A stretch of DNA of 64,000 bases from Oscillospiraceae bacterium (GTDB taxonomy: Bacteria > Bacillota > Clostridia > Oscillospirales > Acutalibacteraceae), in contig JAISJQ010000025.1 of NCBI GenBank assembly GCA_031261445.1, positions 14,635 through 78,634 on the forward strand, read 5' to 3'. Made by a program: the position numbers and the translations under genes. Under the pieces are notes generated by a model. It saw only the letters and a list, made by a program, of their open reading frames with translations, searched no databases and was not told the origin of the DNA. Below, one piece after another: positions 8,879 to 38,119 of the stretch (position 1 is its first letter; every line of letters starts with the position of its first letter).

Positions 8879-9688
8879 ATGAAAACGAAGTCAAAAAAAG
8901 TCAAATTCGTGTTGGCGGTTGCGCTGGCGGTTGTGGTGGTTGGGGTTGGGGCGGCTTTGTATTTTTCGGAGGATAAGGTTGTGCCGGAGGATGTAAAGAA
9001 CGTGGCGACTGTCGTGGTTATCGCGGGGGAAGAGTACTTGTCGGACGAAACAAGTCTAGTGTTGCCCTATACGGGTCTGACAGATGGAGATGTTGAAATT
9101 ATCGCCAATAGCTTTACTGATTTGGAACTGCTAGATATTTCAGACAATCCCAAGATTACGAATATTGCGCCGCTAGCTAAATTGAAAACGCTGAAAGACC
9201 TATCAGTCTACACCACGCAGGTTTCGGATGTTTCAGCAATCGGCGAACTGACGGAGCTAGAGAGTTTGGTTCTTGGAACCAGCAAAATACAGGACATAAC
9301 CCCTTTGGCGAAGCTGAAAAATCTAACGTTTTTAACTCTTTACAATAAGGAAGTTTCAGATCTTTCCCCTCTGTCCAAGCTGACACAGTTAAAAACTTTA
9401 CATGTAGGATCTGTATACACGAAGACACTTACAGATTTGCGCCCTTTGGCCGCCCTGACCAATCTTACCTATCTTGGTATAATTGAAGCTCCCGGCGTCA
9501 AAGACATTTCGCCTCTTGCTGACCTGAAAAACTTGGATGAATTGCATTTGTCAGACCTAAACATCAGCGATCTAAGTTCTATTGCTGGTCTAACAAGACT
9601 TAAGAAATTGTATTTATACAACAACAAAACCTCCGTCACCGACTGGTCGCCTGTGGCGCACGTGCCAGACGTTGACGGTCGCCCATAA
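8879..9688 (+). CDS. membrane-anchored leucine-rich-repeat (internalin-like) protein
   Basis: N-terminal TM helix, then about 8 LRR units of 22 aa (LxxLxxLxLxxTxVSDISPL). GC is visibly lower than in the neighbours. Confidence 0.75.
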   Translation: MKTKSKKVKFVLAVALAVVVVGVGAALYFSEDKVVPEDVKNVATVVVIAGEEYLSDETSLVLPYTGLTDGDVEIIANSFTDLELLDISDNPKITNIAPLAKLKTLKDLSVYTTQVSDVSAIGELTELESLVLGTSKIQDITPLAKLKNLTFLTLYNKEVSDLSPLSKLTQLKTLHVGSVYTKTLTDLRPLAALTNLTYLGIIEAPGVKDISPLADLKNLDELHLSDLNISDLSSIAGLTRLKKLYLYNNKTSVTDWSPVAHVPDVDGRP

Positions 9689-10424: not shown

Positions 10425-10448
10425 AAATGTGATGGAATTTATCGAAAC

Positions 10449-10477
10449 TTGTATTCTTGCGGGATATCTGTTATAAT
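10449..10477 (+). promoter_or_regulatory. promoter of LCP gene
   Basis: TTGTAT, 17-nt spacer, TATAAT (10472-10477) with TGT extension. Confidence 0.55.
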
Positions 10478-10510
10478 ACGCGCGAACAGCAAACGGAGGC
10501 GAGGCATCCA

Positions 10511-12001
10511 ATGTCGAAAAAAACAGACACCCAAAGCATAAAAGAGCCCAAAAGCCGGAAAACACCCAAAGATTGGGCACGCGCTGTGCGCACATTTTTC
10601 CTGTCCATCCCCGGGAGAATCACGGCGTTCATCCAACCCAACGGCAAGTTCAGCAAGAAGAACATTGCCATTCTGGCCACGAGCATCTTGCTGGTGATTG
10701 CGCTGATTGTGGGCGCGGTCTTCGGCGGCATTGCGCTCTGGGGCAGCACGGACGATGACCCGTCCAACACCACGATTGAAGAGGAAGAGAACGACGACTT
10801 CCCCAGCGACAAGTACGGTCTGAGCGATGCGGGGAGCTTGAACGAGCTGCTCCGCGCGTGGGCGCAGACGGGCACACCTGTGCAACAGAACTACGTGATC
10901 AACGTGCTGCTCATCGGCGTGGACAGCCGCAAAGAGGGTGGCGAAGGGCGCAGTGACGCGATGATTTTGGTGTCTGTCAACAAACAGACGAAGAAAATCA
11001 CGCTGGCATCCTTCCCCCGCGATAGCTACACCTATATGCAGATTAAGGGCGAGGATCGCTACGACAAAGTCAACCACTCTTATGTTTGGGGCGGCGCGGA
11101 CGCGCTTGTGCCCACCCTTGAGAACGCCTACAAAATCAAGATCGATCACTGGGCGGCGGTGGATTTCGTCACGTTCAGCCGCGTGGTGGATATCCTCGGC
11201 GGCGTGAACATCACCGTCACCGAGGCGGAATCCAAAGAAGTCAACAACCACCCCAAAACCTATGGCAAAGTCACCCTGCCCTTTGGTGAAAACATCAAGC
11301 TCAACGGGCGGCAAGCCCTCACCTTCAGCCGCATTCGGCATTTGGGCAGCGACGTGGCACGCACCGAGCGTCAACGCAAAATGATCACCCAGCTCATCGG
11401 CAAGGCCAAGGGCGCGTCGCTGGATCAACTGACCAAAATCGCGGGGGAACTGCTCAAAAATGTGAAGACGGACATTGGTTTGGTGGACTTCACGGCGCTG
11501 GGCACGCAGGCACTGAGCGGCGGCTGGGCGGGCTTTGACATCGCTTCGTTGGAAGTGCCCGACAGCAGTTTGCGCCTGCCCACCCTCTTGCCGGGCACGT
11601 ATGCCAACCCCAATCGCAACATTTCTGTGTACGTCATTGACTACCCGCGCGGCGCGTATGACCTGCAGATGCGGCTGTATGGGCAATCCAACATCGTCAT
11701 TGACGAGAACACGCCCAATGCGCTGGCACTGCTCAGTCCCCCGCCGAAACCGACCAATCCGCCCACGGTGTATGTCCCGCGCACAGTTGCGCCCACTGTG
11801 CCCAACGTCAGCGCGGTCAAACCCAGTGCACCAGCACCCGCCAGCTCTGCCGTCAAGCCGTCCGCGACCACACCCGCGCAATCCACCACGCCGAGCGTCC
11901 CCGTCACAAAGCCGAGCACCGCGCCGACGATTCCGCCCGTCACCACAACGCCCACGAAACCCGCGACAGTGCCCAGCACCGCACCCGCTCCGTTGGGCTG
12001 A
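10511..12001 (+). CDS. LytR-CpsA-Psr (LCP) family cell-envelope transferase with Pro/Thr/Ser-rich C-terminus
   Basis: ATG 10511 behind GGAGG. TM helix. VLLIGVDSR..GRSDAMILVSVN..SFPRDSY LCP core. Confidence 0.85.
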   Translation: MSKKTDTQSIKEPKSRKTPKDWARAVRTFFLSIPGRITAFIQPNGKFSKKNIAILATSILLVIALIVGAVFGGIALWGSTDDDPSNTTIEEEENDDFPSDKYGLSDAGSLNELLRAWAQTGTPVQQNYVINVLLIGVDSRKEGGEGRSDAMILVSVNKQTKKITLASFPRDSYTYMQIKGEDRYDKVNHSYVWGGADALVPTLENAYKIKIDHWAAVDFVTFSRVVDILGGVNITVTEAESKEVNNHPKTYGKVTLPFGENIKLNGRQALTFSRIRHLGSDVARTERQRKMITQLIGKAKGASLDQLTKIAGELLKNVKTDIGLVDFTALGTQALSGGWAGFDIASLEVPDSSLRLPTLLPGTYANPNRNISVYVIDYPRGAYDLQMRLYGQSNIVIDENTPNALALLSPPPKPTNPPTVYVPRTVAPTVPNVSAVKPSAPAPASSAVKPSATTPAQSTTPSVPVTKPSTAPTIPPVTTTPTKPATVPSTAPAPLG

Positions 12002-12090
12002 GCCATCGGTAGATTCTGCCAAACGGCGCATGTATTTTGTCGTGTTTCTCGTCCATGCTAAGGACAAACCAGTAGCAGGAGTGACGAGAA

Positions 12091-12273
12091 ATGGATATGC
12101 AAGACGCGGCATGGCAACAGTTTATGCAAAGCGGCCAAGTGACGGATTATCTCCAGTATTGCAACGTGCGCAACATGGTCGTGGGCACGGCGCAGCACGT
12201 CAGGAAAGGCAAGCAGAATGCATCTCGACTGCCCCGGACTCGTTCTGGCGGCCAAGGATACGGCGGAAAATGA
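12091..12273 (+). CDS. YqzL-family small protein (tentative)
   Basis: AGGAG RBS. AWQQFMQSGQVTDYLQY resembles the YqzL motif, and the position upstream of recO matches Bacillus. The 3' end overlaps recO by 55 nt, so its extent is uncertain. Confidence 0.45.
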   Translation: MDMQDAAWQQFMQSGQVTDYLQYCNVRNMVVGTAQHVRKGKQNASRLPRTRSGGQGYGGK

Positions 12274-12970
12274 CCGCTTGCTGACCATCCTCACGGCAGA
12301 CGTGGGGGTGGTCACTGCGTTTGCCAACGGTGCGCGGCGGCGCAATTCCCGCCTACAGGCCGCCGTGCAGGCTCTGTGCTATGGCGATTTTTCCCTCTAC
12401 CGCCGCCGGGATACTTACACCGTGGACGATGCACGCGCCCAAAACGTCTTCTTTGGTCTGCGTGCCGACCTGACCCGCCTCGCGCTAGCGCAATATTTCT
12501 GCGCACTGGCGACGGTTTTAGCACCCGCCGAACACGGCGGCGCGGACTTTTTGCAGCTACTCCTGCTCGCGCTGACCTGTCTGGATAAACAGCGGCACGC
12601 GCCGGTACTCATTAAACCCGCCGTGGAACTGCGCCTACTGTCCCTTGCGGGGTGGACACCCGATCTCTCCCGTTGCCGCGTCTGCGGCGCGGACACACTA
12701 GCGGGCGATTTTGTCACGCTGGATCTGCACGAAGGCAATTTCATCTGTGCGGACGAACCGCCGCAGGCGGGCGAGCGCATCGGGTTGGGCGTGCTTTCCG
12801 CCATGCGCCACATCTGCGACGCGCCCTTGCGGCGACTATTCGCCTTCACCCTGCCCGCGCCGAGCCTGGCGCGTCTGGGCGAAGTGTGCGAGGCACTGGT
12901 GCGCGTGCACATCCCAGAGCGTACCCGCGCGGTGTGGGACACGCTGGCGTTTTATCAGGAGCTGTGCTGA
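12218..12970 (+). CDS. recO: DNA repair protein RecO
   Basis: 250 aa. N-terminal OB region (GLVLAAKDTAENDRLLTILT..GARRRNSR) and Cys4 zinc motif (CRVCG..C). Confidence 0.85.
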   Translation: MHLDCPGLVLAAKDTAENDRLLTILTADVGVVTAFANGARRRNSRLQAAVQALCYGDFSLYRRRDTYTVDDARAQNVFFGLRADLTRLALAQYFCALATVLAPAEHGGADFLQLLLLALTCLDKQRHAPVLIKPAVELRLLSLAGWTPDLSRCRVCGADTLAGDFVTLDLHEGNFICADEPPQAGERIGLGVLSAMRHICDAPLRRLFAFTLPAPSLARLGEVCEALVRVHIPERTRAVWDTLAFYQELC

Positions 12971-12982
12971 GCGGCAAAACTC

Positions 12983-13011
12983 TTGCGCAAATGCGCAAAA
13001 CATGTTATAAT
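12983..13011 (+). promoter_or_regulatory. promoter of dnaA
   Basis: TTGCGC (12983-12988), 17-nt spacer, TATAAT (13006-13011). Confidence 0.6.
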
Positions 13012-13045
13012 ATTCGGCGGAACAAAGTTGCGGGAGGGGACGAGC

Positions 13046-14347
13046 ATGGACAGCTTTATGGGCGACATTTGGCCCATGGTGCAAAAGGCGCTCAAGGAGA
13101 GTGTGTCGGAGATCACCTATAGCGTGTGGCTTTCCGACTTGCATGTGCAGGAATTCGACGAAGACCATGCGGTTCTCTACACCAGCGCGTTCAAAAAACA
13201 GCTGATTGAGAAGAAATTTGCCGAGCAACTCGATGCCGCGTTCGCGCGCGTGTTGGGCTTTTCCATTCGTGTGAGCATCATCGCCGACCCCGCCGAAGCC
13301 ACACCCAGCAAACCCGCGAAAACCGCCGCGCCACCCATGGTTTTGCAGACATTCGACAGCTTCGTCGTCGGCGATTCCAATAAGTTCGCCCACGCGGCGG
13401 CCGTCGCCGTGGCGGGGCGTCCGGGAGAAGTGTACAATCCGCTGTTCATTTGGGGGCACTCTGGCCTTGGCAAAACGCACTTGATGCAGGCAATTTTACA
13501 CGAAATCCGCATCAAACGGCCGGACGTGCGCATGATTTCAACCACTGGCGAAGCCTTCGCCAACGAGCTCATCAGTCACATTTACGCGAAAAATATGGAA
13601 GCGTTTCACAATAAATTTCGCGGCGTAGATGTCTTGCTGGTCGATGACGTGCAGTTCATTGGCGGCAAGGAGAGCACGCAAGAGGAATTTTTTCACACAT
13701 TCAACGAAATCACCAACAGCGGCGGACAAATCGCGCTGGTCAGTGACCGCCCACCCAAGGAGATCGCCACGCTCGATGAGCGACTGCGCACGCGCTTTGA
13801 AATGGGGCTCATTGCCGACATCGCGCCGCCCGATCTAGAGACCCGCACGGCCATTGTGCAACGCAAGGCGCGGGAAATCGGTGTGGACTTTCCGCCCGAA
13901 ATCTGCACCTTCATTGCCGAAAAACTTCACGCCAATGTGCGGCAGTTGGAGGGCGCGGCGCGGAAACTCCACGCGCACCTTGTCCTCAGCGGGCGGGAAC
14001 TGACACGGCAGACGGCAGAGCTGGCCATCCGCGATGTGCTGGAGGAATCCGCCCCGCCGGGCGTGACGGTGGAGCGCATTATTGAAGAAATTGCACGCGC
14101 CTATGGCGGTTCGCCTGAGATGATTCGTGGAAAAAAACGCGATGCCCGCACGGTGCTCATGCGTCAGGCGGCCATTTACTGTGCGCGACAGGCCACACCG
14201 CTTTCCATGCAGGAAATCGGCAAAGAGTTTGGCGGGCGCGACCACTCAACGGTCTTGCACTCGCTGAAAACCTGCGATTACGAAATGAAAAACAACGCCC
14301 AACTGCGAGCGGTGGTCAACGATGTGCTGAAGAATATTCGGGAGTGA
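13046..14347 (+). CDS. dnaA: chromosomal replication initiator protein DnaA
   Basis: ATG 13046 behind GGGAGGGG. GHSGLGKTHL Walker A, LLVDDVQF Walker B, and domain IV GGRDHSTVLH signature. Confidence 0.93.
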   Translation: MDSFMGDIWPMVQKALKESVSEITYSVWLSDLHVQEFDEDHAVLYTSAFKKQLIEKKFAEQLDAAFARVLGFSIRVSIIADPAEATPSKPAKTAAPPMVLQTFDSFVVGDSNKFAHAAAVAVAGRPGEVYNPLFIWGHSGLGKTHLMQAILHEIRIKRPDVRMISTTGEAFANELISHIYAKNMEAFHNKFRGVDVLLVDDVQFIGGKESTQEEFFHTFNEITNSGGQIALVSDRPPKEIATLDERLRTRFEMGLIADIAPPDLETRTAIVQRKAREIGVDFPPEICTFIAEKLHANVRQLEGAARKLHAHLVLSGRELTRQTAELAIRDVLEESAPPGVTVERIIEEIARAYGGSPEMIRGKKRDARTVLMRQAAIYCARQATPLSMQEIGKEFGGRDHSTVLHSLKTCDYEMKNNAQLRAVVNDVLKNIRE

Positions 14348-14353
14348 CGCGCC

Positions 14354-17029
14354 TCAACGCAAGGGCGCGAGCAACTCTTGCGCCATGTCGGGATTTTCCA
14401 CGCGCATGAACATGCCGTCCTGTCCGCCGCCGTACCACACGATGATGCCATCCACGATGCAAAAGCGGCCACGGGCACTTTCTTTTTGTAGCACCTGCAC
14501 CCCAGCGCCGCGCAACGTCTGTAGACAGGCCGTCTGCGCCTCGCCGCGCACGGGGCGCGTCACCACCACGGGGCGTGCGCCCTGCACTTTTGCCGTGGTC
14601 AGCCACGGCAAAAGCTGTGTGATTTGCGCCTCGCTGAGCGTTGGCGCGACGACGACAATGCCCTTTTTGGCGCCCTGTATGTCCCGCGCAAAAACGGGGG
14701 CGTAGGTGTCGGCGTCAAAAAACGTGCCGATTTTTTCCACGTTTTGCGCTTCCCGCGTGTGATATTGCATGGCGGCATAACCCGCCGCACGCTTGGCGTA
14801 CATGCGCTCGAGCATCACAACCTGGGTGTCCACATAGTCGTAAATCATCACATCGCTTTTGCTCGGATGTGTGCGGTGCAGGCGACCGGCGTACTGCTGG
14901 AGCGTGCCTTTCCATGCAATAGGCGTGGCCAAAAACAGCGTATCCAGGCGCGGCTCATCGAAGCCCTCGCCCACAAATTGCCCAGTGGCCACCAAACAAA
15001 ACGGCTCGCCGTCTGGAATCGCTTGTAGTCGCTCCACGGCCTCGCGCTTTTCTTTGGCACTCGCCTTGCCCGTCAGTTCAATCACATTGTCACAAAAAGC
15101 GGAAATCATCGTGGAAAGCGCGTGCACGTGCGCCACAGATTTGCTCAAGACAAGCGGCGTGCGCCCCTCCGCTAGCGCGGCGCAGACATCCGACACAATC
15201 AACTTATTGCGCACCGGGTCATCGGCCAGCGCGTTATACAGCTGCGCAATTTTCAGGTCGTTCGGGTTCATGTGCAGCGGCACTTGAAACGCCGTAAAGC
15301 GCGGCACAAGAAAACGCGCAAGCCCCGTGATTTCCGCCTGCTTGGCCGCATTGACACGGTGACGAATGGGACCACATTGCATGAAGATGATGGGCGTCAG
15401 ACCGTCCGAACGCGCGGGTGTGGCCGATAGGCCATAGACGTGGCGTGCCGTCACAGCACCCAGAATACGCTCGAAACTCACAGCGGAAACATGGTGGCAT
15501 TCGTCCACAATCACCATGCCATAATCGCGCACAAGCCCCTTCACCTCGTCGCCCTCGGCCAGCGACTGCATCACCGCAATATCCACCTTGCCGTAGAGCG
15601 CATTTTTGCCGCCGCCCAGCTGTCCAATGTGGCTCGGGCGTTTGCGCGGCACGATGGGCAAGGGCTCGTCGAAAACCAAAAAGCTCTCCAACGCCTTTTT
15701 CCACTGGTTCAGCAATGCCGTGGTGTGCACCAAAATCAGCGTGTTGACCTGCCGTTGGGCGATGAGATACGCGCCCACCACCGTTTTGCCAAAGGCCGTG
15801 GTGGCACTGAGCACGCCATTTTCGTGCCGGAGCATGGCCGCCGCCGCCGGCGTTTGTTCCGGGCGCAGCTCGCCACTGAACGTCACATTTACATGCCGCC
15901 CATCCGTGCGTTTATCCAACAGACTGTAGGGCGCGTGCGCCTCGTCCAGCAGGGCGCACAAATCCTGTGCACAGCCCCGCGGGAGGAGCAGGTAGTCCGC
16001 TGTCTCGTCTGCGCAGCAGACGATGCGTGGCAGTGTGCCCACCGTGGGCAAGCGCATGGCCACCGCCTTCGCCCACGCCGGATTGCGGAACGCCGCCAAC
16101 CGCTTGATGCGCCCCAGCGCTCGCTCGCTCACGCCCCCTTTGGGGATGTAGAGCCGATTGGCGTGCACGATCTCCAGCGCGGCGGGGAAGTCGGCGGGCG
16201 TCAGGGGGGGCGGCGGGGGGGCGGCTTCCCACGGGGTTTTGTCCTCTGGGTCGGGACTGAGAACGCCCAGTTCTGATCCGCCGATTTTGCGAATCACCTC
16301 CTGCACATCGTCTGGGCTGAGTCGCTCAACGCGTGACAAATAGTCCCACTGATCGGGGTATGCTTCGAGATTGTCATCCACAAACAAGCTATTGCCCGCT
16401 TTGCGCATTTTGCCTTGGAGTGGCAACGCGATCAGGTTGCCCAAACCGCCGCGGGGCACGCTGTCCTGGTTGGGGAAGAGGCGGTCGTAGCTCTCGAACG
16501 GGATCTCGTGCCGCTTGCCCATGGCAAACGTGAGCAGGGCTGAGCCAAAACGCCGCGCTTGCACCGCCGGGATTTTCTCGTCAAAAAAGAACCACACATG
16601 CGCCCCGTTGCCCGAACGCGAACGCTCCACCGCTGGGTGCAGTTCCAGCTCCTCGCAGGCCAAACGAAAGGCGGCCACGTCTTTTTTCCACGCGGATTTG
16701 TCGAAATCCAGCGCAAGAAAGTGGCAACAGTCGTCCAGCGTTAAGGGGTAGATGCCGACAACGTCTGCGCCGATGGGGCTTTTACCCGCTAGGTGGTCGT
16801 AGAGCACTTTTTCGCTCAGACGCATGAAGCTGCGGTGGGGGCACTCGGCACAACGGTGTGCTTTTTTGTCGCACAGCCCCCGCACCCATTCGTTGCGGCA
16901 GACCGGCGCGTAGCCGCTTTTGCCCGTGCGTTGGTTCTCCCAGCGTTTGGCGTACACGTCTTCGCGCCCACGAAACAAGCCCATAAAGAGGGCGACTTTC
17001 TCGTCCGTACTGCTTTTGTTGGTGACCAT
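14354..17029 (-). CDS. fusion protein: N-terminal archaeo-eukaryotic primase (PrimPol)-like domain, SF2 DExH helicase, C-terminal degenerate PLD-like domain
   Basis: AGGAGG RBS. AEP-type motifs LALDFD (DxD), SGNGAHVWFFF (sGxGxH) and YDRLFPNQD. Helicase motifs TAFGKT, VDECHH, LSATP and QYAGRLHR. The C-terminal ~130 aa resemble a PLD-fold repeat without HKD. Confidence 0.8.
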   Translation of the reverse strand: MVTNKSSTDEKVALFMGLFRGREDVYAKRWENQRTGKSGYAPVCRNEWVRGLCDKKAHRCAECPHRSFMRLSEKVLYDHLAGKSPIGADVVGIYPLTLDDCCHFLALDFDKSAWKKDVAAFRLACEELELHPAVERSRSGNGAHVWFFFDEKIPAVQARRFGSALLTFAMGKRHEIPFESYDRLFPNQDSVPRGGLGNLIALPLQGKMRKAGNSLFVDDNLEAYPDQWDYLSRVERLSPDDVQEVIRKIGGSELGVLSPDPEDKTPWEAAPPPPPLTPADFPAALEIVHANRLYIPKGGVSERALGRIKRLAAFRNPAWAKAVAMRLPTVGTLPRIVCCADETADYLLLPRGCAQDLCALLDEAHAPYSLLDKRTDGRHVNVTFSGELRPEQTPAAAAMLRHENGVLSATTAFGKTVVGAYLIAQRQVNTLILVHTTALLNQWKKALESFLVFDEPLPIVPRKRPSHIGQLGGGKNALYGKVDIAVMQSLAEGDEVKGLVRDYGMVIVDECHHVSAVSFERILGAVTARHVYGLSATPARSDGLTPIIFMQCGPIRHRVNAAKQAEITGLARFLVPRFTAFQVPLHMNPNDLKIAQLYNALADDPVRNKLIVSDVCAALAEGRTPLVLSKSVAHVHALSTMISAFCDNVIELTGKASAKEKREAVERLQAIPDGEPFCLVATGQFVGEGFDEPRLDTLFLATPIAWKGTLQQYAGRLHRTHPSKSDVMIYDYVDTQVVMLERMYAKRAAGYAAMQYHTREAQNVEKIGTFFDADTYAPVFARDIQGAKKGIVVVAPTLSEAQITQLLPWLTTAKVQGARPVVVTRPVRGEAQTACLQTLRGAGVQVLQKESARGRFCIVDGIIVWYGGGQDGMFMRVENPDMAQELLAPLR

Positions 17030-17069
17030 GCGCCCTCCTTTCGGTGTTCTCGACAGAATCTCTGTAAAG

Positions 17070-17561
17070 CTATTGAGCTTTACACGTGGTCAGCACGTAC
17101 CCGTCGCGCGTCTGCGTCTCAAAGCGCAGATTCGGCAACACAAGCACCGAAAACGATGCCAGCGGGCGGCTGAGCCCGTCCCCCGTGTACTTCAGATACG
17201 CCTCTTTCTGCGTCCAGATCTGAAAAAAACGCTGGGCATCCTCCCCCACGAACGCGGCCTCGTCCGGAGCGAAATTGCGCCGCGCAATGCGAAAATCTGG
17301 CGCACGCAGTCGCTCCACGTCCACACCAATGGGGGTGTCGCTCACCGCCAACGCCAACGCCGCGCCGCTGTGGGACAGGTTGAAGTGAAAGCCCGGCGCG
17401 TCGACAAAATAGGGCTTGCCGTGGGGTTCGCGCCGACAGTCCAGCGCATCGGCGGGGTGACCCGTGTGCTGGGCACACAGTGCCCGCGCGAGGGCGTACC
17501 CACGCGCGGAAAGCGTTTTGGTGTCTGCACCGGGGTACAGCTCGAAGAGCAGACGCTGCAT
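17070..17561 (-). CDS. Sfp-type 4'-phosphopantetheinyl transferase
   Basis: FHFNLSHSG, GVDVE and WTQKEAYLK motifs. ATG 17561 overlaps the upstream stop (ATGA). Confidence 0.85.
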   Translation of the reverse strand: MQRLLFELYPGADTKTLSARGYALARALCAQHTGHPADALDCRREPHGKPYFVDAPGFHFNLSHSGAALALAVSDTPIGVDVERLRAPDFRIARRNFAPDEAAFVGEDAQRFFQIWTQKEAYLKYTGDGLSRPLASFSVLVLPNLRFETQTRDGYVLTTCKAQ

Positions 17562-18835
17562 CAGTGCCTGATGAGCCGGAGGAGCTCCCGCAACTTGGGT
17601 GGCTTGCCATAAAGTAGCACACCCACGCGGTAGATGGCTGTGGCCAATAGTCCCACGCCCACGATGGACGCCACGAGAATTGCCAGCGAGAGCGCGACTT
17701 CCCACGGCGCGGCCAAATTGGTGCTCATGCGGATGAACATGGCCAAGGGTGAAGTGAACGGCAGGTAGGAGAGCACCTTCATGAAGGCGGAATCCGTGTA
17801 GTTGAAGACGGTGGAGAAATAGCAGGCGTAAAACGCGGCGAGCACCGACATAGTGACGGGCATCATGGTGCTTTGCAGATCCTCCGTGCGACTCACGAGA
17901 CTCCCCAGCGCCCCGAAGAGGAAGCTATAGAGCAGGTAGCCCAGGACGAAGAAAATCACGACAAAGAGTAGTAGAGTGCCATTTCCGCTCACAAACAAGG
18001 AGGAGACGGACGGCGTGTTGTCCCAATACGCGCCAGAGAGCTTGTAGCCCGCCAGCGCGGTCAGAATCCACAGGAGCAGTTGCGCGAGGCCGGCACAGCC
18101 CACGCCGAGCACCTTGCCGAAAATCAGTGCGCTCGGCCGGGCGGCGGTGACGAGCAATTCCATGGCACGGCTGGATTTTTCCGTGGCCACAGAGCCCGCG
18201 ACGATGCCGCCGTAGATCATGATGGTGATCATCATCAGCACGTTCAGGAGCATGGTGTAGCCCGACGTGTTGCTGCCATCGTTTTTGGTGGCAACGAGGG
18301 TTTGTTCGGTCTGCGCCGTCAGGATGGCCTGCGCCTGCTGGGCGGTCGCGCCAATTTCGGCGAGCTGTGCGCTCTGGTAAACGCCCAAAATCACAGCATC
18401 AATCTGATAGGGCGTCAGATCCGTCATGCCCGCCTGCTGCGTATAGAAGGTATAGTGCAGCGCATCGGCGAAGTAGAGGGCGTAGTCCACCTCGCCGCGC
18501 GTAACCGCGTCCAAAAGATCCGCTTCGCTCGCCTGCGCCTCCAAGAGCACCGTCCCAAAGGACAATTGCGCCTGCAACGCCGCCTGCAGCGTTTCGGGCT
18601 GTTCCAGATGGGCGATGCGCAGCGTTTTGTCGCTGTAATCCGTGGCGATGAGGTTGTTCATCAGTTCGTCCAGACCGCCGCCCGGCTGCATGGGTTCGGC
18701 GGTTTTGCCCAGCAGCGCGGGGAAGCCCAGCCCCACGAGGAACGCCAGCGCGAAGAGAATGGTGGTGAAGATATACGCTCCGGACTTGGCCGTGGTCTTG
18801 AATTCGTGCCGAAACACAGGGAAAAACTGCCTCAT
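17561..18835 (-). CDS. ABC-2 family exporter permease (NatB-like)
   Basis: Start MRQFFPVF at 18835 overlaps the ATPase stop (ATGA). One N-terminal TM helix, a large extracytoplasmic loop, and a C-terminal bundle of 5-6 TM helices. Confidence 0.7.
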   Translation of the reverse strand: MRQFFPVFRHEFKTTAKSGAYIFTTILFALAFLVGLGFPALLGKTAEPMQPGGGLDELMNNLIATDYSDKTLRIAHLEQPETLQAALQAQLSFGTVLLEAQASEADLLDAVTRGEVDYALYFADALHYTFYTQQAGMTDLTPYQIDAVILGVYQSAQLAEIGATAQQAQAILTAQTEQTLVATKNDGSNTSGYTMLLNVLMMITIMIYGGIVAGSVATEKSSRAMELLVTAARPSALIFGKVLGVGCAGLAQLLLWILTALAGYKLSGAYWDNTPSVSSLFVSGNGTLLLFVVIFFVLGYLLYSFLFGALGSLVSRTEDLQSTMMPVTMSVLAAFYACYFSTVFNYTDSAFMKVLSYLPFTSPLAMFIRMSTNLAAPWEVALSLAILVASIVGVGLLATAIYRVGVLLYGKPPKLRELLRLIRH

Positions 18836-19746
18836 GCCGCGCCTCCTTTGTCGGTAGTGGTGTCCACGAAAATGTCTTGCAACGTGGGTTCCCACACAGC
18901 GAACGAATCGATGTCAAAGCCCTGCTCGCTGAGCACCGAGAGCAGAATGGCCTTGTCTTCGGGCGCACGAAGCTGTGCGTGGACGCTCTCGCCCTCGGCC
19001 TGTAGCGACTGCGTGGCGGCCTGCACGGCCGCACTCTGGGCGATGGCCGCCGCCTGCGGGGAGCGTAGCACGATGCGGGCGCGGTCATACCCGCGCTTGA
19101 TCTGCTGGATCTGCCCGGTACGCGCAATCGCGCCGTGATTGAGAATGGCAATCTCTTGGCAAAACTCCTCAATGTAGTTCATCTGGTGCGACGAGAAGAA
19201 GACCAGCGCCCCTTTGCCGACCAGTTCCCGCACCAGATCTTCCAGTAGCATGGCGTTGACGGGGTCAAGCCCGCTGAAGGGCTCATCGAGCACCACCAGC
19301 TCCGGCTCGGCGATGAGCGTGGCGACAAACTGGATTTTCTGCTGATTGCCCTTGCTGAGCGTCTGGAGCTTTTTCTTGGCCGTGTCGCCCATCTCTAGGC
19401 GCTCGAGCAAGCGCAGGGCATTTTTTCGCGCCGCCGGGGTCTTCAGCCCCGCCAGCTGACCGAAATAGATCAGCTGTTCCAGCACCGTTTTTTTCGGGTA
19501 CATCCCCCGCTCTTCGGGCAGGTAGCCCGTGCGCAGCATCCCCCGCCGCAGGGGCACGCCGTCCAGGAGCACCTGCCCCTCATCTGGGCGAAACACCTCC
19601 ATGACGATGCGGATCATGGTGGTTTTGCCCGCGCCGTTGCGTCCGAGCACCCCGAATGCGTGCCCGCTTTCCGCCCGTAGGTTGATGCCGCGCAGGACGT
19701 GGTTTGTCCCAAAGGACTTGTGAATGTTTTGCAGTTCCAAAATCAC
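18832..19746 (-). CDS. ABC transporter ATP-binding protein (NatA-like)
   Basis: GRNGAGKTT Walker A, LSKGNQQK signature, VLDEPFSGLD Walker B. Confidence 0.9.
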   Translation of the reverse strand: MILELQNIHKSFGTNHVLRGINLRAESGHAFGVLGRNGAGKTTMIRIVMEVFRPDEGQVLLDGVPLRRGMLRTGYLPEERGMYPKKTVLEQLIYFGQLAGLKTPAARKNALRLLERLEMGDTAKKKLQTLSKGNQQKIQFVATLIAEPELVVLDEPFSGLDPVNAMLLEDLVRELVGKGALVFFSSHQMNYIEEFCQEIAILNHGAIARTGQIQQIKRGYDRARIVLRSPQAAAIAQSAAVQAATQSLQAEGESVHAQLRAPEDKAILLSVLSEQGFDIDSFAVWEPTLQDIFVDTTTDKGGAA

Positions 19747-19758
19747 AGGTTTTTCCTC

Positions 19759-20928
19759 CTAAATAAAACTGTTTTCCACAGTAATCACGCAGTTGTAGCG
19801 CGGATCGAGTGCCGAAATCCCCGTGCAGAGGGTCTGCTCCAGATCGCGTGCCTTTTCTGGTTTCGTGTCGTGGGGGACGACCAAATCGAAGATGAGGTTG
19901 ATGCGCTTTTCGCCATCGACCACGCGAAAGTCGTGGAGCGACAGCGTGGGATCGGTCGCTTTCACGAGTGCTTTCACGGCATCGTAGATCGCGGAGATAC
20001 GCGCGTCGTGCAGGGCGATGGGGTCCATATGGAGCACAAAGGGAATGGCGAGCACATCGAAAATGCGCTTTTCGGCGGCGTCCACGTGCTCGTGGCTGAT
20101 CATCACGTCCACGTCGGCGGGCACTTCCGCGTGGGCAGAGCCGAAAATCCGCCCCGGGCCATAGTTGTGCAGCATCATGTCGTGCACGCCCACGATGCCC
20201 TCGCTCTGAATCAGAATGTCGTGGATACGCTGGGGCAAATCGCCGCTGGGACGCTCGCCCACCAGCGTGCCCAGTGTCTCCAAGAGCATTTTGCCGCCGC
20301 TCCAAAAGATAAACAAGGCCACCACCGCGCCAAAATAGCCATCGAGCGGCACGCCCGTAAAGCGTGCGAGCACGAGCGAGAGCAAGGTCACGCCAGAGCA
20401 GAGCGTATCGGAAAAGCTGTCCTGCGCGGCGGCCAAAAGCGCGGGGGCATCCGTGCGTTTGCCCAGCCTGCGGTAGAAAAATCCCAGCCCAACCTTGCAG
20501 AAAATTGACCCGGCCACGATGCCCACGGGCACCCAGCCAAAGCTGACGGGCGTGGGGGCGAAGATGCGCTCAAGCGAGTTGCGCCCCATTTGCCAGCCCA
20601 TAAAGAGCACCAGCACGCTGAAAAACACCGTCACCAGATATTCCATGCGCCCGTGACCAAAGGGGTGTTCGGCATCGGCACTCTTGCCGGCCATTTTTGT
20701 GCCCACGGCGGAAATCAGGGCACTGCCCGCGTCGGTGAGGTTGTTCATCGCGTCCGCTGTCACGGCAACGGAGTGGCTCAGATTGCCCGCAATGAACTTG
20801 CCGACCGCCAGCGCAAGGTTCACCACTGCACCCAAAGCACTGCCCATCACGCCAATGCGCGTGCGAGCGGCAGGGGTGATTTCCTCCGCCGATGATCCGG
20901 CGATTAAACAACGAAACAACGATAGCAT
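19759..20928 (-). CDS. cation diffusion facilitator (CDF) family metal exporter
   Basis: 389 aa with SVAVTADAMNNLTD and HPFGHGRMEY motifs. The ATG lies only 6 nt after a TATACT box, so the mRNA may be leaderless. Confidence 0.88.
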   Translation of the reverse strand: MLSLFRCLIAGSSAEEITPAARTRIGVMGSALGAVVNLALAVGKFIAGNLSHSVAVTADAMNNLTDAGSALISAVGTKMAGKSADAEHPFGHGRMEYLVTVFFSVLVLFMGWQMGRNSLERIFAPTPVSFGWVPVGIVAGSIFCKVGLGFFYRRLGKRTDAPALLAAAQDSFSDTLCSGVTLLSLVLARFTGVPLDGYFGAVVALFIFWSGGKMLLETLGTLVGERPSGDLPQRIHDILIQSEGIVGVHDMMLHNYGPGRIFGSAHAEVPADVDVMISHEHVDAAEKRIFDVLAIPFVLHMDPIALHDARISAIYDAVKALVKATDPTLSLHDFRVVDGEKRINLIFDLVVPHDTKPEKARDLEQTLCTGISALDPRYNCVITVENSFI

Positions 20929-20934
20929 AGAGAT

Positions 20935-20976
20935 AGTATAACACAGCTGCGCTGTATTTTATTTCCAAATTAGAAA
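20935..20976 (-). promoter_or_regulatory. 42-nt shared promoter-proximal motif, copy upstream of the CDF exporter gene
   Basis: Minus strand reads TTTCTAATTTGGAAATAAAATACAGCGCAGCTGTGTTATACT. Confidence 0.6.
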
Positions 20977-21022
20977 GTTCGAACAATTGTTTTTCTGCTG
21001 GGAACGGCGCAGTTAACACAAC

Positions 21023-21071
21023 GGGCGACCGAGGACGGTCGCCCCTACGGGCAATTGTTCATTGTTCATTG
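21023..21071. repeat. REP-like hairpin (..CTAC) plus GTTCATT heptads overlapping the exporter gene stop
   Basis: GGGCGACCgaggacGGTCGCCCCTAC, then caattgttcattgttcattg. Confidence 0.85.
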
Positions 21072-21622
21072 GTTTCCCCCCGCACTGGCCGTATAACGTG
21101 GTTGACCGCGACGCTCACGGCGATGCCCAGAGCCGTGTCTAGGATGCGATTGAGGGCGTAGAGGTACGGCAGTTCGCGCTCGTTCGCGCCCACCAGCAGG
21201 ATGATGAACGTCACCGCGCAGATGGCGCAAGCGTCGCGGCGGTCGAGCAGGAGCATCAGCCAGATGACCAGCATACAGCCCACCAGCAGGAACAAAATGT
21301 TCAGCCGCCCGCCCCAGACGTGCGCACTGATCCACATGAAGCCCAGCCCCACCGCGCCGCCCACCGCCGTGCCCAGCAGTCGCCCGCCGCCGCTGTGCAG
21401 GGAGTGCGCGACGGTCTGTTGCATACAGATCACCGCCGCCACGCAGGCGAACAGGGGCTCTTGCATGGTGAGGAATGCCCCCACGGACGCGACAAAGCCC
21501 GTGCCGTGCGTCACCAGCGCTTGCCCCAGCGCCGCCAGCCCGAGGAACAGCAAGAGACACACCGTCACAGCCAAGGCGGTTTTGACCGTGCGCATACCGA
21601 GTTTGGGGATTTTTGTTTTCAT
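21059..21622 (-). CDS. aromatic acid exporter (ArAE/FUSC-like) family membrane protein
   Basis: MRTVKTALAVTVCLLLF N-terminus and 5-6 TM helices. The stop lies in a heptad array. Confidence 0.6.
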   Translation of the reverse strand: MKTKIPKLGMRTVKTALAVTVCLLLFLGLAALGQALVTHGTGFVASVGAFLTMQEPLFACVAAVICMQQTVAHSLHSGGGRLLGTAVGGAVGLGFMWISAHVWGGRLNILFLLVGCMLVIWLMLLLDRRDACAICAVTFIILLVGANERELPYLYALNRILDTALGIAVSVAVNHVIRPVRGETNEQ

Positions 21623-24764: not shown

Positions 24765-25658
24765 ATGTGGTCAAGCCTCATAATCTCAACAGCCTTAAAA
24801 ACACTTGCTGAAATATTTGCTGCGTATGGAATTGGTAAAGGACTTGACGCTCTCGCAGAAAAAATGAAAAGAAATACGTGGGAATGGCAATTAATTAAAG
24901 CTATGGAAGAAACATGTAAAAGCTACACTTGGGACTATGACTCTAAACGGATAAGTATAGTTGCGCAAAATCAACAAGCTCCGCAGAGCTCAACGAACTT
25001 CCTGCGAGCTTTACTCTCTGATATGATAGGACATGACGTTACCGAAAATGAATTATCGCAATGGCTTCGCACTTTTAGTGGCGTGGTTGCAAACATGCGT
25101 TTTGTTGCGCTCCGAGATTACCTTCAGTTGAATTTCACAACCACTTATCCACTGATTTCTGCATTTTCTGCTGAAAAACCGATTGATTCAGCTGTTTTCC
25201 CATCGAATGCTCCACAAAATAATCTGAACCTTTTCTTTTCTGTGCAAACGTTCTTAGCATATCATATTAACGAAAATTACTATGGCGGCGTACATTTCGT
25301 TTGGTGCGCAGATAGTTTTGATGATAAAGAACTCCCACCTTTTGCAAATCCCAAAAGCATTTACCACTCTTTGATTAATACCAAGGACAAATACAGCCGG
25401 AGTATTAATGAAAAAATGAAAGGCATTCTGGCGGGTGCCGCCCAGATGTATGCCAAAGGAAAAATTAATAAAAAAGAGCTGAAAGAGATAATAGATATTG
25501 TAAATCGTGCACCCGTGCACCATTTTCGTCCCGTTTTATATCTGATTCACAAGTTACTCATTCAACCCGAGAGAATTGACACCGTTGTCTCTTATCGTAA
25601 CAACATTCATATTATCGCTGACCTAAGTTCCAATGAGTGCGAGATGTTAGAACTATGA
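24765..25658 (+). CDS. hypothetical protein in a low-GC island
   Basis: 297-aa ORF with GAAGGTGA RBS. The AT-rich composition is sharply different from the flanks. I cannot assign a domain. Confidence 0.6.
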   Translation: MWSSLIISTALKTLAEIFAAYGIGKGLDALAEKMKRNTWEWQLIKAMEETCKSYTWDYDSKRISIVAQNQQAPQSSTNFLRALLSDMIGHDVTENELSQWLRTFSGVVANMRFVALRDYLQLNFTTTYPLISAFSAEKPIDSAVFPSNAPQNNLNLFFSVQTFLAYHINENYYGGVHFVWCADSFDDKELPPFANPKSIYHSLINTKDKYSRSINEKMKGILAGAAQMYAKGKINKKELKEIIDIVNRAPVHHFRPVLYLIHKLLIQPERIDTVVSYRNNIHIIADLSSNECEMLEL

Positions 25659-36207: not shown

Positions 36208-36349
36208 GTGCCCGTGAGCGGATGTAGTTCCGGTGCACTGCATCCGCCCACGGGGTTGCCCTGCGCGTATATTATCGCCCCCGCGCATGTGTTGGGCATG
36301 GCAGAATTGTGAAGATGTGCTGAAAACTATCGCGATAAATTCCGCAAAA

Positions 36350-36380
36350 GAAACAAAACGCACCGCGCGTGTGCTATAAT
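36350..36380 (+). promoter_or_regulatory. shared promoter motif (3' 31 nt only), copy upstream of aroQ
   Basis: GAAACAAAACGCACCGCGCGTGTGCTATAAT. 25/31 identical to 34551-34581; four of the six differences are transitions in the middle block, and the -10 box differs at two positions. Confidence 0.55.
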
Positions 36381-36440
36381 ACAGGCGCAGAAATCTCGCC
36401 GTGCGCGGCGGACGTATCCCCCCACAAGTAAGGAAAATCT

Positions 36441-36893
36441 ATGCACCTGCTCATCCTCAACGGCCCCAACCTCAACCTTCTGGGTCTGCGCGAACCCGCA
36501 TTGTACGGTGCCCAGACCTACGCCGCGCTGTGCCAGACTTGCGAGGACGCTTGCCGCGCCCGGGACGTGACCTGCACCCTCTTCCAGTCCAACCACGAGG
36601 GCGCGTTGGTGGACGCCATCCAAGACGCCTACGGCAAGGCCGACGGCATTGTCCTCAACCCGGCGGCGTACACGCACACGAGCGTGGCGATTCTGGACGC
36701 GCTCAAGGCCGTCCATCTCCCCGCAGTGGAAGTGCACCTGACCGCTGTGGCGGAACGCGAGCCCTTCCGCCATGTCTCCTTTGCCGGCCTGGCCTGCGAG
36801 AAAACCATTACGGGGCAAGGCTTTGCGGGCTACGTGCAAGCGATCGATTATCTCGCTGAGCGTTATGGTGCATCCAATGGGCAGGGGGCGTGA
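36441..36893 (+). CDS. aroQ: type II 3-dehydroquinate dehydratase
   Basis: 150 aa with ILNGPNLNLLGLREP and ..HTSVAI.. motifs. Confidence 0.92.
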   Translation: MHLLILNGPNLNLLGLREPALYGAQTYAALCQTCEDACRARDVTCTLFQSNHEGALVDAIQDAYGKADGIVLNPAAYTHTSVAILDALKAVHLPAVEVHLTAVAEREPFRHVSFAGLACEKTITGQGFAGYVQAIDYLAERYGASNGQGA

Positions 36894-36894
36894 C

Positions 36895-37569
36895 GTGAAC
36901 ATCCTGGCGGCAATTTTGGCGGCAGGCTCTGGCTCGCGGGTGGGGGCGGACGTGCCCAAGCAGTATCTGCCCATCGGCGGCGTGCCCATGCTGCGCCGTG
37001 CGGCGGATGCCTTTTTGTTGCACCCAGCTGTCGACCAAGTGGCGGTGTTTTGCCCAGCGGATTGGCTCGCGCAGACCCGCGCAATCTTTGCGGACACGGG
37101 CGCGGTCATTCTCCCCGGCGGCGCAACGCGCACGCAAACCCTAGAGCGCGTGGTGGGTTTTTGGCGCACGGATTCCGGCAATCCCGACGACATTTTGCTC
37201 ACGCACGACGGCGCACGCCCACTCGTCAGTGCGCGGATTATCCACGCGAACATCGCCGCCGCGCGGACATACGATGCCGTGGGCACGTATCTGGCCTGCG
37301 CAGATTCGCTCGTGCGCGGGGAGGGCGACACGGTGACCACACCCGTCAGCCGCGCGGGTGTGTACCGCGCACAGACGCCCCAGACCTTCCGCGCAGGCGC
37401 ACTGGCGGCGCGGTTGGCGCAGCTCACGGACGCACAAAAAAATGCCCTCACAGACGCATGCGGCATCTTCACGCTGTTGGGCGAAACGGTGCATATCGTG
37501 CCGGGCGAGGCAATCAACTTCAAGATTACCACGGCGGATGATTTGCGATTGGCAGAAGACAGAAAATAG
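36895..37569 (+). CDS. ispD: 2-C-methyl-D-erythritol 4-phosphate cytidylyltransferase
   Basis: AAGSGSRVG..PKQYL motif. GTG 36895 is 1 nt after the aroQ stop. An alternative ATG lies at 36877. Confidence 0.85.
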   Translation: MNILAAILAAGSGSRVGADVPKQYLPIGGVPMLRRAADAFLLHPAVDQVAVFCPADWLAQTRAIFADTGAVILPGGATRTQTLERVVGFWRTDSGNPDDILLTHDGARPLVSARIIHANIAAARTYDAVGTYLACADSLVRGEGDTVTTPVSRAGVYRAQTPQTFRAGALAARLAQLTDAQKNALTDACGIFTLLGETVHIVPGEAINFKITTADDLRLAEDRK

Positions 37570-37614
37570 AGGGCAGAATCTTGTACTAGACAGGTGCGAC
37601 CACTCCGCACGGAT

Positions 37615-37694
37615 GTAGGGGACGCCGCCCTCGGCGTCCCGCTGATCTCTATGGTTTTTCTGCGCCACGGGGCGATGTGGACATCGCCCCCTAC
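37615..37694. repeat. pair of REP-like hairpins in opposite orientation
   Basis: GTAGGGGACGCCgccctcGGCGTCCCGC (37615-37642) and GGGGCGATGTggACATCGCCCCCTAC (37669-37694). Confidence 0.85.
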
Positions 37695-37720
37695 GGAAGG
37701 ATTTCTAAAACGGAATCGTA

Positions 37721-38119
37721 TCACATCTCGCCCAGCAGCGCCAGCGCGTCCTGAATCTGGAACGCGCATTCTTTGTATGCCTCTAGGTTGTGGCCGTAGG
37801 GGTCGTCAATGCCGTTCCCCAGAAGCACCACGCGCTTGTGGGGGTATGCGCCTTGCAGCACTTGCTGATGATATGCGCCGATGGCCACAATCAGGTCGGC
37901 GGTCTGGGCGATGTCCGGGGTCAAAAAACGGGAGCGGTGGTCGCTGATGTCAACGCCAAAAGTCTGTAGCGCGGCGACGGCGTGCGCAGAAGCCGACAGG
38001 CCGTCGGTGGCCAAAATGCCCGCGCTCGCGCACGATATTTCTGGATGCAACACGCCAAAAAGCCCCGCCGCCATGGGACTGCGGCAGGTGTTGCCGGTGC
38101 AGACAAACAGTACGTTCAT
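37721..38119 (-). CDS. low-molecular-weight protein-tyrosine/arginine phosphatase
   Basis: Start MNVLFVCTGNTCRSPMA at 38119, carrying the CX5R(S) P-loop. Confidence 0.85.
   Translation of the reverse strand: MNVLFVCTGNTCRSPMAAGLFGVLHPEISCASAGILATDGLSASAHAVAALQTFGVDISDHRSRFLTPDIAQTADLIVAIGAYHQQVLQGAYPHKRVVLLGNGIDDPYGHNLEAYKECAFQIQDALALLGEM

Follow-up and report, generated by a model that had tools for sequence, protein, structure and literature searches.

What is a gene for a primase-polymerase, a helicase and a nuclease-like domain, joined in one polypeptide, doing among the housekeeping genes of a bacterium and beside dnaA? The question is raised by P0001, an 891-codon gene on the minus strand of a 64,000-nt stretch of an Oscillospiraceae contig, which we call the window (its assembly is G000). 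An earlier note, made from the letters alone, had read the product as a fusion of an AEP primase-polymerase domain, a superfamily 2 (SF2) helicase and a degenerate PLD domain, and had called such fusions typical of mobile-element replication or anti-phage modules. The answer we favour, at slightly better than even confidence, is that its product is a working protein of the family of Escherichia coli IEE, the IS-excision enhancer (the 'Z1568-like' or AEP-TOTE family), in which the polymerase and an XPB/UvsW-like ATPase would be active and the PLD domain dead. It is part of the same judgement that the PLD domain would already have been inactive in the ancestor of the genus and that selection would have kept the gene since.

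The reading frame is uninterrupted and begins with ATG. The parts of the gene, called from the list of open reading frames (ORFs) with its translation and from direct reading of the DNA, are collected in Table 1. All the motifs that the earlier note quoted are present in the translation and in the same order: LALDFD (D108/D110), SGNGAHVWFFF (H144), YDRLFPNQD (D182), GLGNLIALPLQG, TAFGKT (K415), VDECHH, LSATP, QYAGRLHR and ARGRFCIVDGIIVWYGG. Its three domain assignments also hold, by profile as well as by Foldseek, and the N-terminus falls inside the AEP (Prim-Pol) fold. Pfam PF22548, "AEP-TOTE", matches residues 10-244 (E=4.5e-98) and does carry the 'conflict system' label that the note had mentioned; the PADLOC profile for "PrimPol, Cas-associated" matches with E=2.4e-92. 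A sequence search of solved structures aligned the N-terminus with the Marinitoga CRISPR-associated Prim-Pol (CAPP) 7NQD (E=3e-10), and Foldseek, run on a full-length AlphaFold model with a pLDDT of 74, placed it on the Prim-Pol domain of CAPP (TM 0.73-0.77, E about 1e-11). By residue census the metal ligands D108, D110 and D182 are intact and the nucleotide-binding H144 and Y94 are kept; in the order D108, D110, D182, H144 and Y94 they correspond to D142, D144, D216, H178 and Y128 of IEE. The Cys/His cluster that had been proposed upstream exists as a cysteine cluster, although its real pattern is C-x8-C-x6-C-x2-C with a single CxxC, not the 'CxxC..C..CxxC..H-like' arrangement first suggested. 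C44, C53, C60 and C63 are each present in 125 of the 127 proteins aligned from the family, IEE included, and the cluster is a putative zinc-binding element.

Between the AEP domain and the helicase lies a bridging region that aligns with residues 281-421 of IEE and whose model falls below a pLDDT of 50 at residues 250-271 and 320-333. The helicase core itself is of the XPB/UvsW/RadD type. ResIII and DEAD profiles of Pfam match over residues 387-540, with a weak Helicase_C match, and motifs I (K415), II (D509 E510 C H512), III (SAT) and VI (Q712, R716, R719) are intact. Against sequences of the PDB, the centre of the protein finds XPBII (E=2e-15) and also XPB, UvsW, RadD and SauUSI (E=5.6e-12); Foldseek of the full-length model likewise places it with XPB, UvsW and RadD, the XPB-type helicases at E about 1e-16.

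The closest characterised relative, which the earlier note did not name, is IEE of E. coli O157:H7 (BLASTP, 45% identity over 753 aa, E=0), which does not serve as a replication primase and is not an established anti-phage protein. IEE (ECs_1305, NP_309332.1), reportedly described by Kusumoto in 2011, lies in SpLE1 of the Sakai chromosome beside insertion sequence (IS) remnants and itself scores PF22548 with E=1.7e-98. It is a Mn-dependent, error-prone DNA polymerase and a DNA-dependent ATPase with undetectable unwinding, it joins 3' overhangs through microhomologies of at least 4 nt in a reaction that requires both domains, and it removes copy-out-paste-in insertion sequences in E. coli (PMC9943667). 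In vivo it promotes the transposase-dependent excision of elements of the IS3, IS1 and IS30 families (bioRxiv 10.1101/2023.06.07.543989), and according to the literature it is present in >30% of E. coli assemblies. The two proteins share a collinear AEP and SF2 core, the Pfam family, the Cys4 cluster, the catalytic Asp/Asp/His/Asp set, the steric Tyr, the Walker A Lys and the arginine finger. Every residue demonstrated or modelled to be essential in IEE is conserved (D142, D144, H178, D216, Y128 and K451), its arginine finger R735 corresponding to one of R716/R719. They differ in that IEE, with 786 aa, ends after the helicase, whereas the protein of the window adds an inactive PLD-fold domain of ~130 residues and lacks the 45-residue N-terminal leader of IEE. 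They differ also in setting: IEE is carried on the horizontally spread SpLE1, alongside IS elements, while the gene studied here sits among housekeeping genes and is inherited within its genus.

If the analogy with IEE (PMC9943667) holds, the ATPase module would bind DNA ends or branched intermediates and keep hold of them, the AEP domain extending 3' ends paired by short microhomologies in a Mn-dependent, error-prone fill-in resembling microhomology-mediated end joining. The substrates of such a protein would be limited to breaks or intermediates that other enzymes produce, for instance transposases, or that arise in replication accidents. Its biological role could be the excision of IS or other mobile DNA, the repair of breaks, or a motor-only function common to the sister species.

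That other enzymes would have to make the breaks follows from the state of the C-terminal domain. The Pfam scan of the 891-aa protein returned no PLD family, and PF13091 (PLDc_2) was not matched. Residues 761-888 nevertheless align over their whole length with a profile built from 107 relatives that have an intact PLD domain (78 bits, E=1.4e-25). As helicase matches dominated the whole-model Foldseek search, the C-terminal domain was modelled alone (pLDDT 87, pTM 0.80), and this model finds Zucchini/PLD6, PLD3/PLD4, NucT and PLD1/2 (E about 1e-5, TM 0.6-0.7), together with the non-enzymatic PLD-like domains of TrmB/TrmBL2. In the alignment the relatives read IHQKFAVIDQxIVWYGSINxLS, which is the canonical HxK(x4)D(x6)GSxN, against ARGRFCIVDGIIVWYG-------GG in the window. 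Here the His and the Lys have both become Arg and the GSxN segment is deleted, all within a retained fold; the earlier note had already spoken of a degenerate domain with its HxK replaced. A census of 126 relatives shows the His kept in 115 and the Lys in 111, and the combination of R/R with a GSxN deletion is unique to this protein. Judged by these residues the domain is a non-catalytic fold, and because its site is dead the protein itself would be unable to cut DNA. Compared with single-HKD nucleases of the same fold (Zucchini/PLD6, Helicobacter pylori NucT, PLD3/4; TM 0.6-0.7), it has lost the catalytic His, the Lys and the GSxN loop. Single-HKD nucleases (Nuc, NucT, Zucchini) work as dimers, and for this reason the retained fold probably serves dimerisation or DNA binding, for which the relic would have been kept.

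Table 1. Features of the gene and its borders, with positions in the window and the evidence for each
Feature	Position	Strand	Description and basis
Whole gene P0001	14354..17029	-	IEE-family AEP primase-polymerase / SF2 helicase / inactivated PLD-domain protein, 891 aa; ORF list and translation, IEE alignment
AEP (Prim-Pol) domain, residues 10-244	16298..17002	-	PF22548, PADLOC PrimPol, CAPP in the PDB, Foldseek, residue census
Four-Cys cluster C44-x8-C53-x6-C60-x2-C63	16841..16900	-	Inside the N-terminal part of the AEP domain; putative zinc-binding element
Bridging region, residues 245-385	15875..16297	-	Model partly disordered; aligns to residues 281-421 of IEE
SF2 helicase core, XPB/UvsW/RadD-like, residues 386-756	14762..15874	-	ResIII, DEAD and Helicase_C matches, XPBII, Foldseek XPB, motif census
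PLD-fold domain, residues 761-888	14366..14749	-	Homologous to the PLDc_2 nuclease domain of relatives, catalytically dead; profile and domain model
HKD motif relic R853-G-R855-F-C-I-V-D860	14450..14473	-	H-x-K-x4-D in relatives; the 7-residue GSxN segment after it is deleted
Shine-Dalgarno-like AAGGAGG	17034..17040	-	4 nt ahead of the ATG at 17029, within the 40-nt gap past the PPTase stop; sequence reading
7-bp G+C hairpin	14348..14369 (arms 14348-14354 / 14363-14369)	.	Covers the stop codons of dnaA and of the AEP-helicase gene, with the 6-nt spacer between them; lacks a U-tract

How long the domain has been dead, and whether the rest of the protein is still in use, can be judged from the genus. 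Full-length homologues were found, among 40 related genomes, in all four congeners (G001-G004, at loci L018, L019, L017 and L009 respectively) and, beyond these, in no more than a single further genus of the family and a single further family of the order. A homologue in G006, 47% identical to the protein of the window, did not enter the comparisons of motifs and identities or the trees. The copies of the five species group as a single clade, with an SH-aLRT support of 98 on the AEP and helicase core and a support of 99 on the helicase alone; since the helicase-only tree recovers it so well, long-branch attraction among the fast-evolving domains does not explain this grouping. The second tree omitted P0014, P0022 and P0092, which are identical to the proteins of G003, G002 and G004, as well as the very long G025 branch. 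Terminal branches of the genus copies measure 0.46-0.62 changes per site, and the DnaA proteins of these species are 60-72% identical, yet the frame is open in all five. Neutral decay would have closed a frame of 2.7 kb, so this one appears to have been kept open by selection. The sister copies are intact ORFs of 931-975 codons and constitute natural polymerase-dead, nuclease-dead variants.

Table 2. Catalytic residues and identity to outgroups in the five genus copies (G000 is the window; 116 outgroups were used for the AEP domain)
Property	G000	G001	G002	G003	G004
PLD His/Lys positions	R/R	H/N	Y/S	H/N	H/N
AEP DxD ligands	D.D (intact)	S.F	E.C	E.G	A.E
AEP His (H144)	H	R	R	H	H
Helicase motifs	intact	intact	intact	intact	intact
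AEP identity	56.1%	46.7%	46.7%	47.1%	43.8%
Helicase identity	58.9%	55.1%	59.5%	59.0%	58.2%
C-terminal identity	32.0%	36.9%	36.3%	35.6%	37.2%

The pattern in Table 2 could mean that the gene has become a domesticated protein centred on its helicase, whose job in the genus needs only the ATPase motor and DNA-binding scaffolds, for remodelling or sensing DNA structures, so that the intact polymerase site of the window would be a leftover. The helicase motifs are kept, helicase identity stands at 55-60% and the ORF is intact in all five copies; the PLD domain is dead in all of them, the AEP DxD is absent from four, and the setting is a housekeeping one in G000, G001 and G002. We consider this explanation unlikely all the same. 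The AEP domain of the window has stayed at family-typical identity (56%, with a family median of 57.6%) while those of its DxD-less sisters have drifted to 44-47%, and because it is undrifted and retains all four catalytic residues and the Cys4 cluster, its polymerase appears to be under continued selection. A broader version, in which the whole genus domesticated a conflict-type primase-helicase-nuclease by switching the nuclease off in the ancestor and the polymerase off in four of five species, with the motor kept throughout for a new cellular function distinct from both IS excision and defence, strikes us as equally doubtful. The simplest history would be that the PLD domain was inactivated in the genus ancestor, that the polymerase was lost later in the sister lineage or lineages, and that the lineage of the window kept its polymerase under constraint while the PLD relic eroded further.

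The same erosion could be taken for the beginning of the end. A relic on its way to a pseudogene, with different domains eroded first in each species, would account for a C-terminal domain that has two deletions and is more eroded than any other in the sampled family (median identity 32%, against a family median of 45.2%), for the missing leader and for the long terminal branches of the clade. Five deeply diverged species without a stop or a frameshift, a helicase and a window AEP domain at family-typical conservation, a dead PLD domain that still models as a confident fold (pLDDT 87) and a good ribosome-binding site speak against it, and we hold such decay to be quite improbable.

An active IEE-like protein thus remains the reading we prefer, and it has to be weighed against the company that the family keeps elsewhere. 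The homology search returned at least 8000 family members, the best among the matches listed having 56-57% identity, a distance at which synonymous sites are saturated; among the same matches, nearly all relatives have 950-975 aa and a C-terminal PF13091 (PLDc_2) domain. Within this AEP-helicase-PLD subfamily (PF22548 + ResIII + PF13091; for example P0002 and P0033), the protein of the window shares the domain order and 50-57% full-length identity, and it nests inside the subfamily in trees. It differs from its relatives, which have a coiled-coil-like leader of 60-80 residues, a canonical motif and, in most of those sampled, a defence or mobile context, in having no leader, an R-x-R in place of the motif with GSxN deleted, and a housekeeping context. 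Gene neighbourhoods were sampled for eight PLD-bearing relatives, and seven of the eight have variable, defence-type surroundings: RloB and AAA_15 with Fic and IS66; AbiEii with an integrase and SLATT; BrxC/PglY with DndB and other Dnd-type genes; an MmeI-type restriction-modification enzyme with Bro-N; or HNH with an S24 peptidase. Strictly core homologues with housekeeping synteny, which the earlier note had named as a finding that would refute its view, are not the pattern of the family: most sampled neighbourhoods are of a defence or mobile type.

In relatives with an intact PLD domain the gene also frequently comes second in a pair, tight or overlapping, with a variable first gene (L041:6602-8050, L042:6700-7986, L043:6703-8004, L002:8682-9980, L003:9396-10004 and L044:5569-7965). 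The upstream partner is SLFN_AlbA_2 with HATPase_c_4 or Fic-like_C in three cases, and AAA_14/DUF4143, AbiEii and an SNF2 helicase in one case each. Such a relative and its variable upstream partner may form an undescribed two-gene module.

With such surroundings it is natural to ask whether the gene is a stand-alone anti-phage or anti-plasmid defence protein that would recognise replication intermediates of foreign origin and block them without cleaving them, through aberrant priming or extension or through translocase action. The conflict-system label of Pfam, the place of PrimPol among the Cas-associated genes of PADLOC, and the defence-type neighbourhoods of intact-PLD relatives, so often second genes after SLFN_AlbA_2/HATPase_c_4, AbiEii, AAA_14/DUF4143 or SNF2, would agree with it. 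In this copy, however, the presumed effector nuclease is lost, the neighbours scanned include no partner gene, island or TPR/OB/TBP gene, the assembly has no Cas1, and the gene is vertically inherited, unlike defence genes, which are usually swapped. Our searches of the literature found no named defence system that combines AEP, SF2 and PLD domains, and no experimental report of defence by any member of the AEP-TOTE family. We rate a defence role for this copy as rather improbable.

The gene can also be compared with known systems. According to Aravind, Iyer & Burroughs (2022), cited in bioRxiv 10.1101/2025.09.15.676423, TOTE systems are TPR, OB, TBP, Effector conflict systems, for which the TPR/OB and TBP partners are defining. 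The AEP domain of the window falls in a Pfam family that takes its name from them, but the gene is flanked by DnaA/RecO and by PPTase/ABC/CDF genes, and TPR, S1/CSD-OB and TBP genes were absent from the neighbours scanned, both of this gene and of the eight sampled relatives, no genome-wide search for TOTE partner domains having been made. Of the solved structures, CAPP of Marinitoga (7NQD/7NQE/7NQF/7P9J) comes closest to the N-terminal domain, but identity is 21-24% and the NCBIfam model NF040561 gives 93.6 bits against a cut-off of 200; Cas1 (PF01867) was found nowhere in the whole assembly. The PLD-helicase restriction enzyme SauUSI (7CLG) has a similar helicase core, with its PLD domain N-terminal where that of the window is C-terminal.

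The other half of the earlier proposal, mobile-element replication, fared less well. AEP-helicase fusions often replicate mobile elements (PMC5862659), and the core made up of AEP domain and helicase (residues 2-756, ~47% identity) turns up in 94 plasmid records, so that a replication primase-helicase of an integrated plasmid, phage or integrative and conjugative element had to be considered. Among 50,697 phage records, however, none covers at least 80% of the 891-aa query, and the helicase part alone matches, at ~25% identity. No element genes surround the gene, the helicase is an SF2 motor of the monomeric, XPB-like type and not a hexameric replicative one, and IEE is not a replicase (PMC9943667). 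A role as replicase, scarcely credible in our estimation, is essentially refuted by its absence from phage records, by the housekeeping flanks and by the host-like composition. What survives of the statement that such fusions are typical of mobile-element replication or anti-phage modules is the defence or mobile context of the family, seen in the seven relatives and the 94 plasmid records; the replication role does not survive, and the copy in the window lies outside any island.

The setting of this copy bears that out. The flanking genes encode NusA, IF-2, a DHH phosphoesterase, RecO, DnaA, a PPTase, an ABC exporter, CDF, MgsA, ArgG, a P-type ATPase and AsnB, and PADLOC found no match in six flanking ORFs. 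The GC content of the gene (0.608; GC3 0.735) matches that of its neighbours, and its surroundings show no integrase, no repeats, no further genes of an element and no shift in composition. The position of the sister copies is common to G001 and G002 and different from that in G000, where the counterparts of those flanking genes are internal to contigs C55 and C14. The dnaA gene, recO and the PPTase/ABC string are unlinked in all four congeners, leaving no empty site to be defined. Since the flanks of dnaA are not conserved in any of the four, the adjacency of the gene to dnaA appears to be incidental.

What, then, can be set against an active IEE-like enzyme, given that it draws on 45% identity to IEE, the full set of IEE catalytic equivalents, the AEP and XPB-like folds and a strong Shine-Dalgarno-like sequence? 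Four points weigh on the other side. Activity is a prediction for this protein as for every PLD-bearing member. Four sister species keep the gene without its polymerase ligands, so the function selected in the genus may not need a polymerase. The protein lacks the leader of 45-80 residues found in relatives and IEE, and only 20 codons separate the upstream stop from its ATG. Lastly, IEE depends in vivo on a matching transposase, and the assembly, 89.8% complete in 75 contigs, shows none of the rve (IS3/IS30-type) or IS256 kind and a single DDE_Tnp_1 gene at a contig end (G000:C4:56459-57127, L040); IS copies, like other repeats, often drop out of metagenome assemblies, so this scarcity may be only apparent.

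The borders of the gene were as the earlier note had given them. The 40-nt gap downstream of the PPTase gene runs from its TAG stop (17072-17070) to the ATG at 17029, and because this gap holds no terminator-like site, co-transcription with the CDF-ABC-PPTase string is likely. A sigma-70 promoter scan of 12000-21500 gave no match. At the other end, the gene converges with dnaA across the 6-bp spacer 14348-14353, next to the dnaA TGA at 14345-14347. The hairpin at this junction was considered as a bidirectional terminator and rejected: its fold of -20 kcal/mol is not significant against shuffles (z=-1.68), and it has no U-tract. The dnaA gene itself (12983-14347, plus strand) is full-length, and Bac_DnaA has no other strong match in the assembly, the second one, on contig C26, being weak; recO precedes the gene and no dnaN follows.

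Some other genes of the window deserve a mention. One for an LRR-repeat protein (8879-9688, plus strand) has a GC of 0.452 and a GC3 of 0.49, against ~0.6 and 0.7-0.8 in its neighbours, and is probably foreign by this composition. Two ORFs overlap on opposite strands, 10439-12112 (minus, 557 aa) and 10457-12001 (plus, 514 aa); PADLOC matches neither, Pfam has no match for the 557-aa product, and the GC3 of the minus-strand ORF (0.54) is below the local norm. Pfam assigns no family at E<=1e-5 to the ORFs at 24765-25658 (plus, 297 aa) and 36327-37769 (minus, 480 aa).

New in this locus are the inactivated PLD domain, the missing leader, the long vertical residence in a housekeeping setting and the complementary inactivation of domains across the genus. 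The family counts at least 8000 clustered sequences, and its sole studied member is the two-domain IEE of E. coli, although the PLD-bearing subfamily is much larger. Neither a Pfam name such as 'TOTE conflict system' nor a PADLOC tag such as 'Cas-associated PrimPol' should be taken to show that the copy in question serves defence. The genus amounts to a natural dissection of the protein, with the polymerase on and the nuclease off in one species, both off in four and both on in close outgroups, the helicase staying constant across them. A comparison of these variants could reveal which activities are required for the role of the family, and whether conflict enzymes can be retained over the long term for a cellular function.

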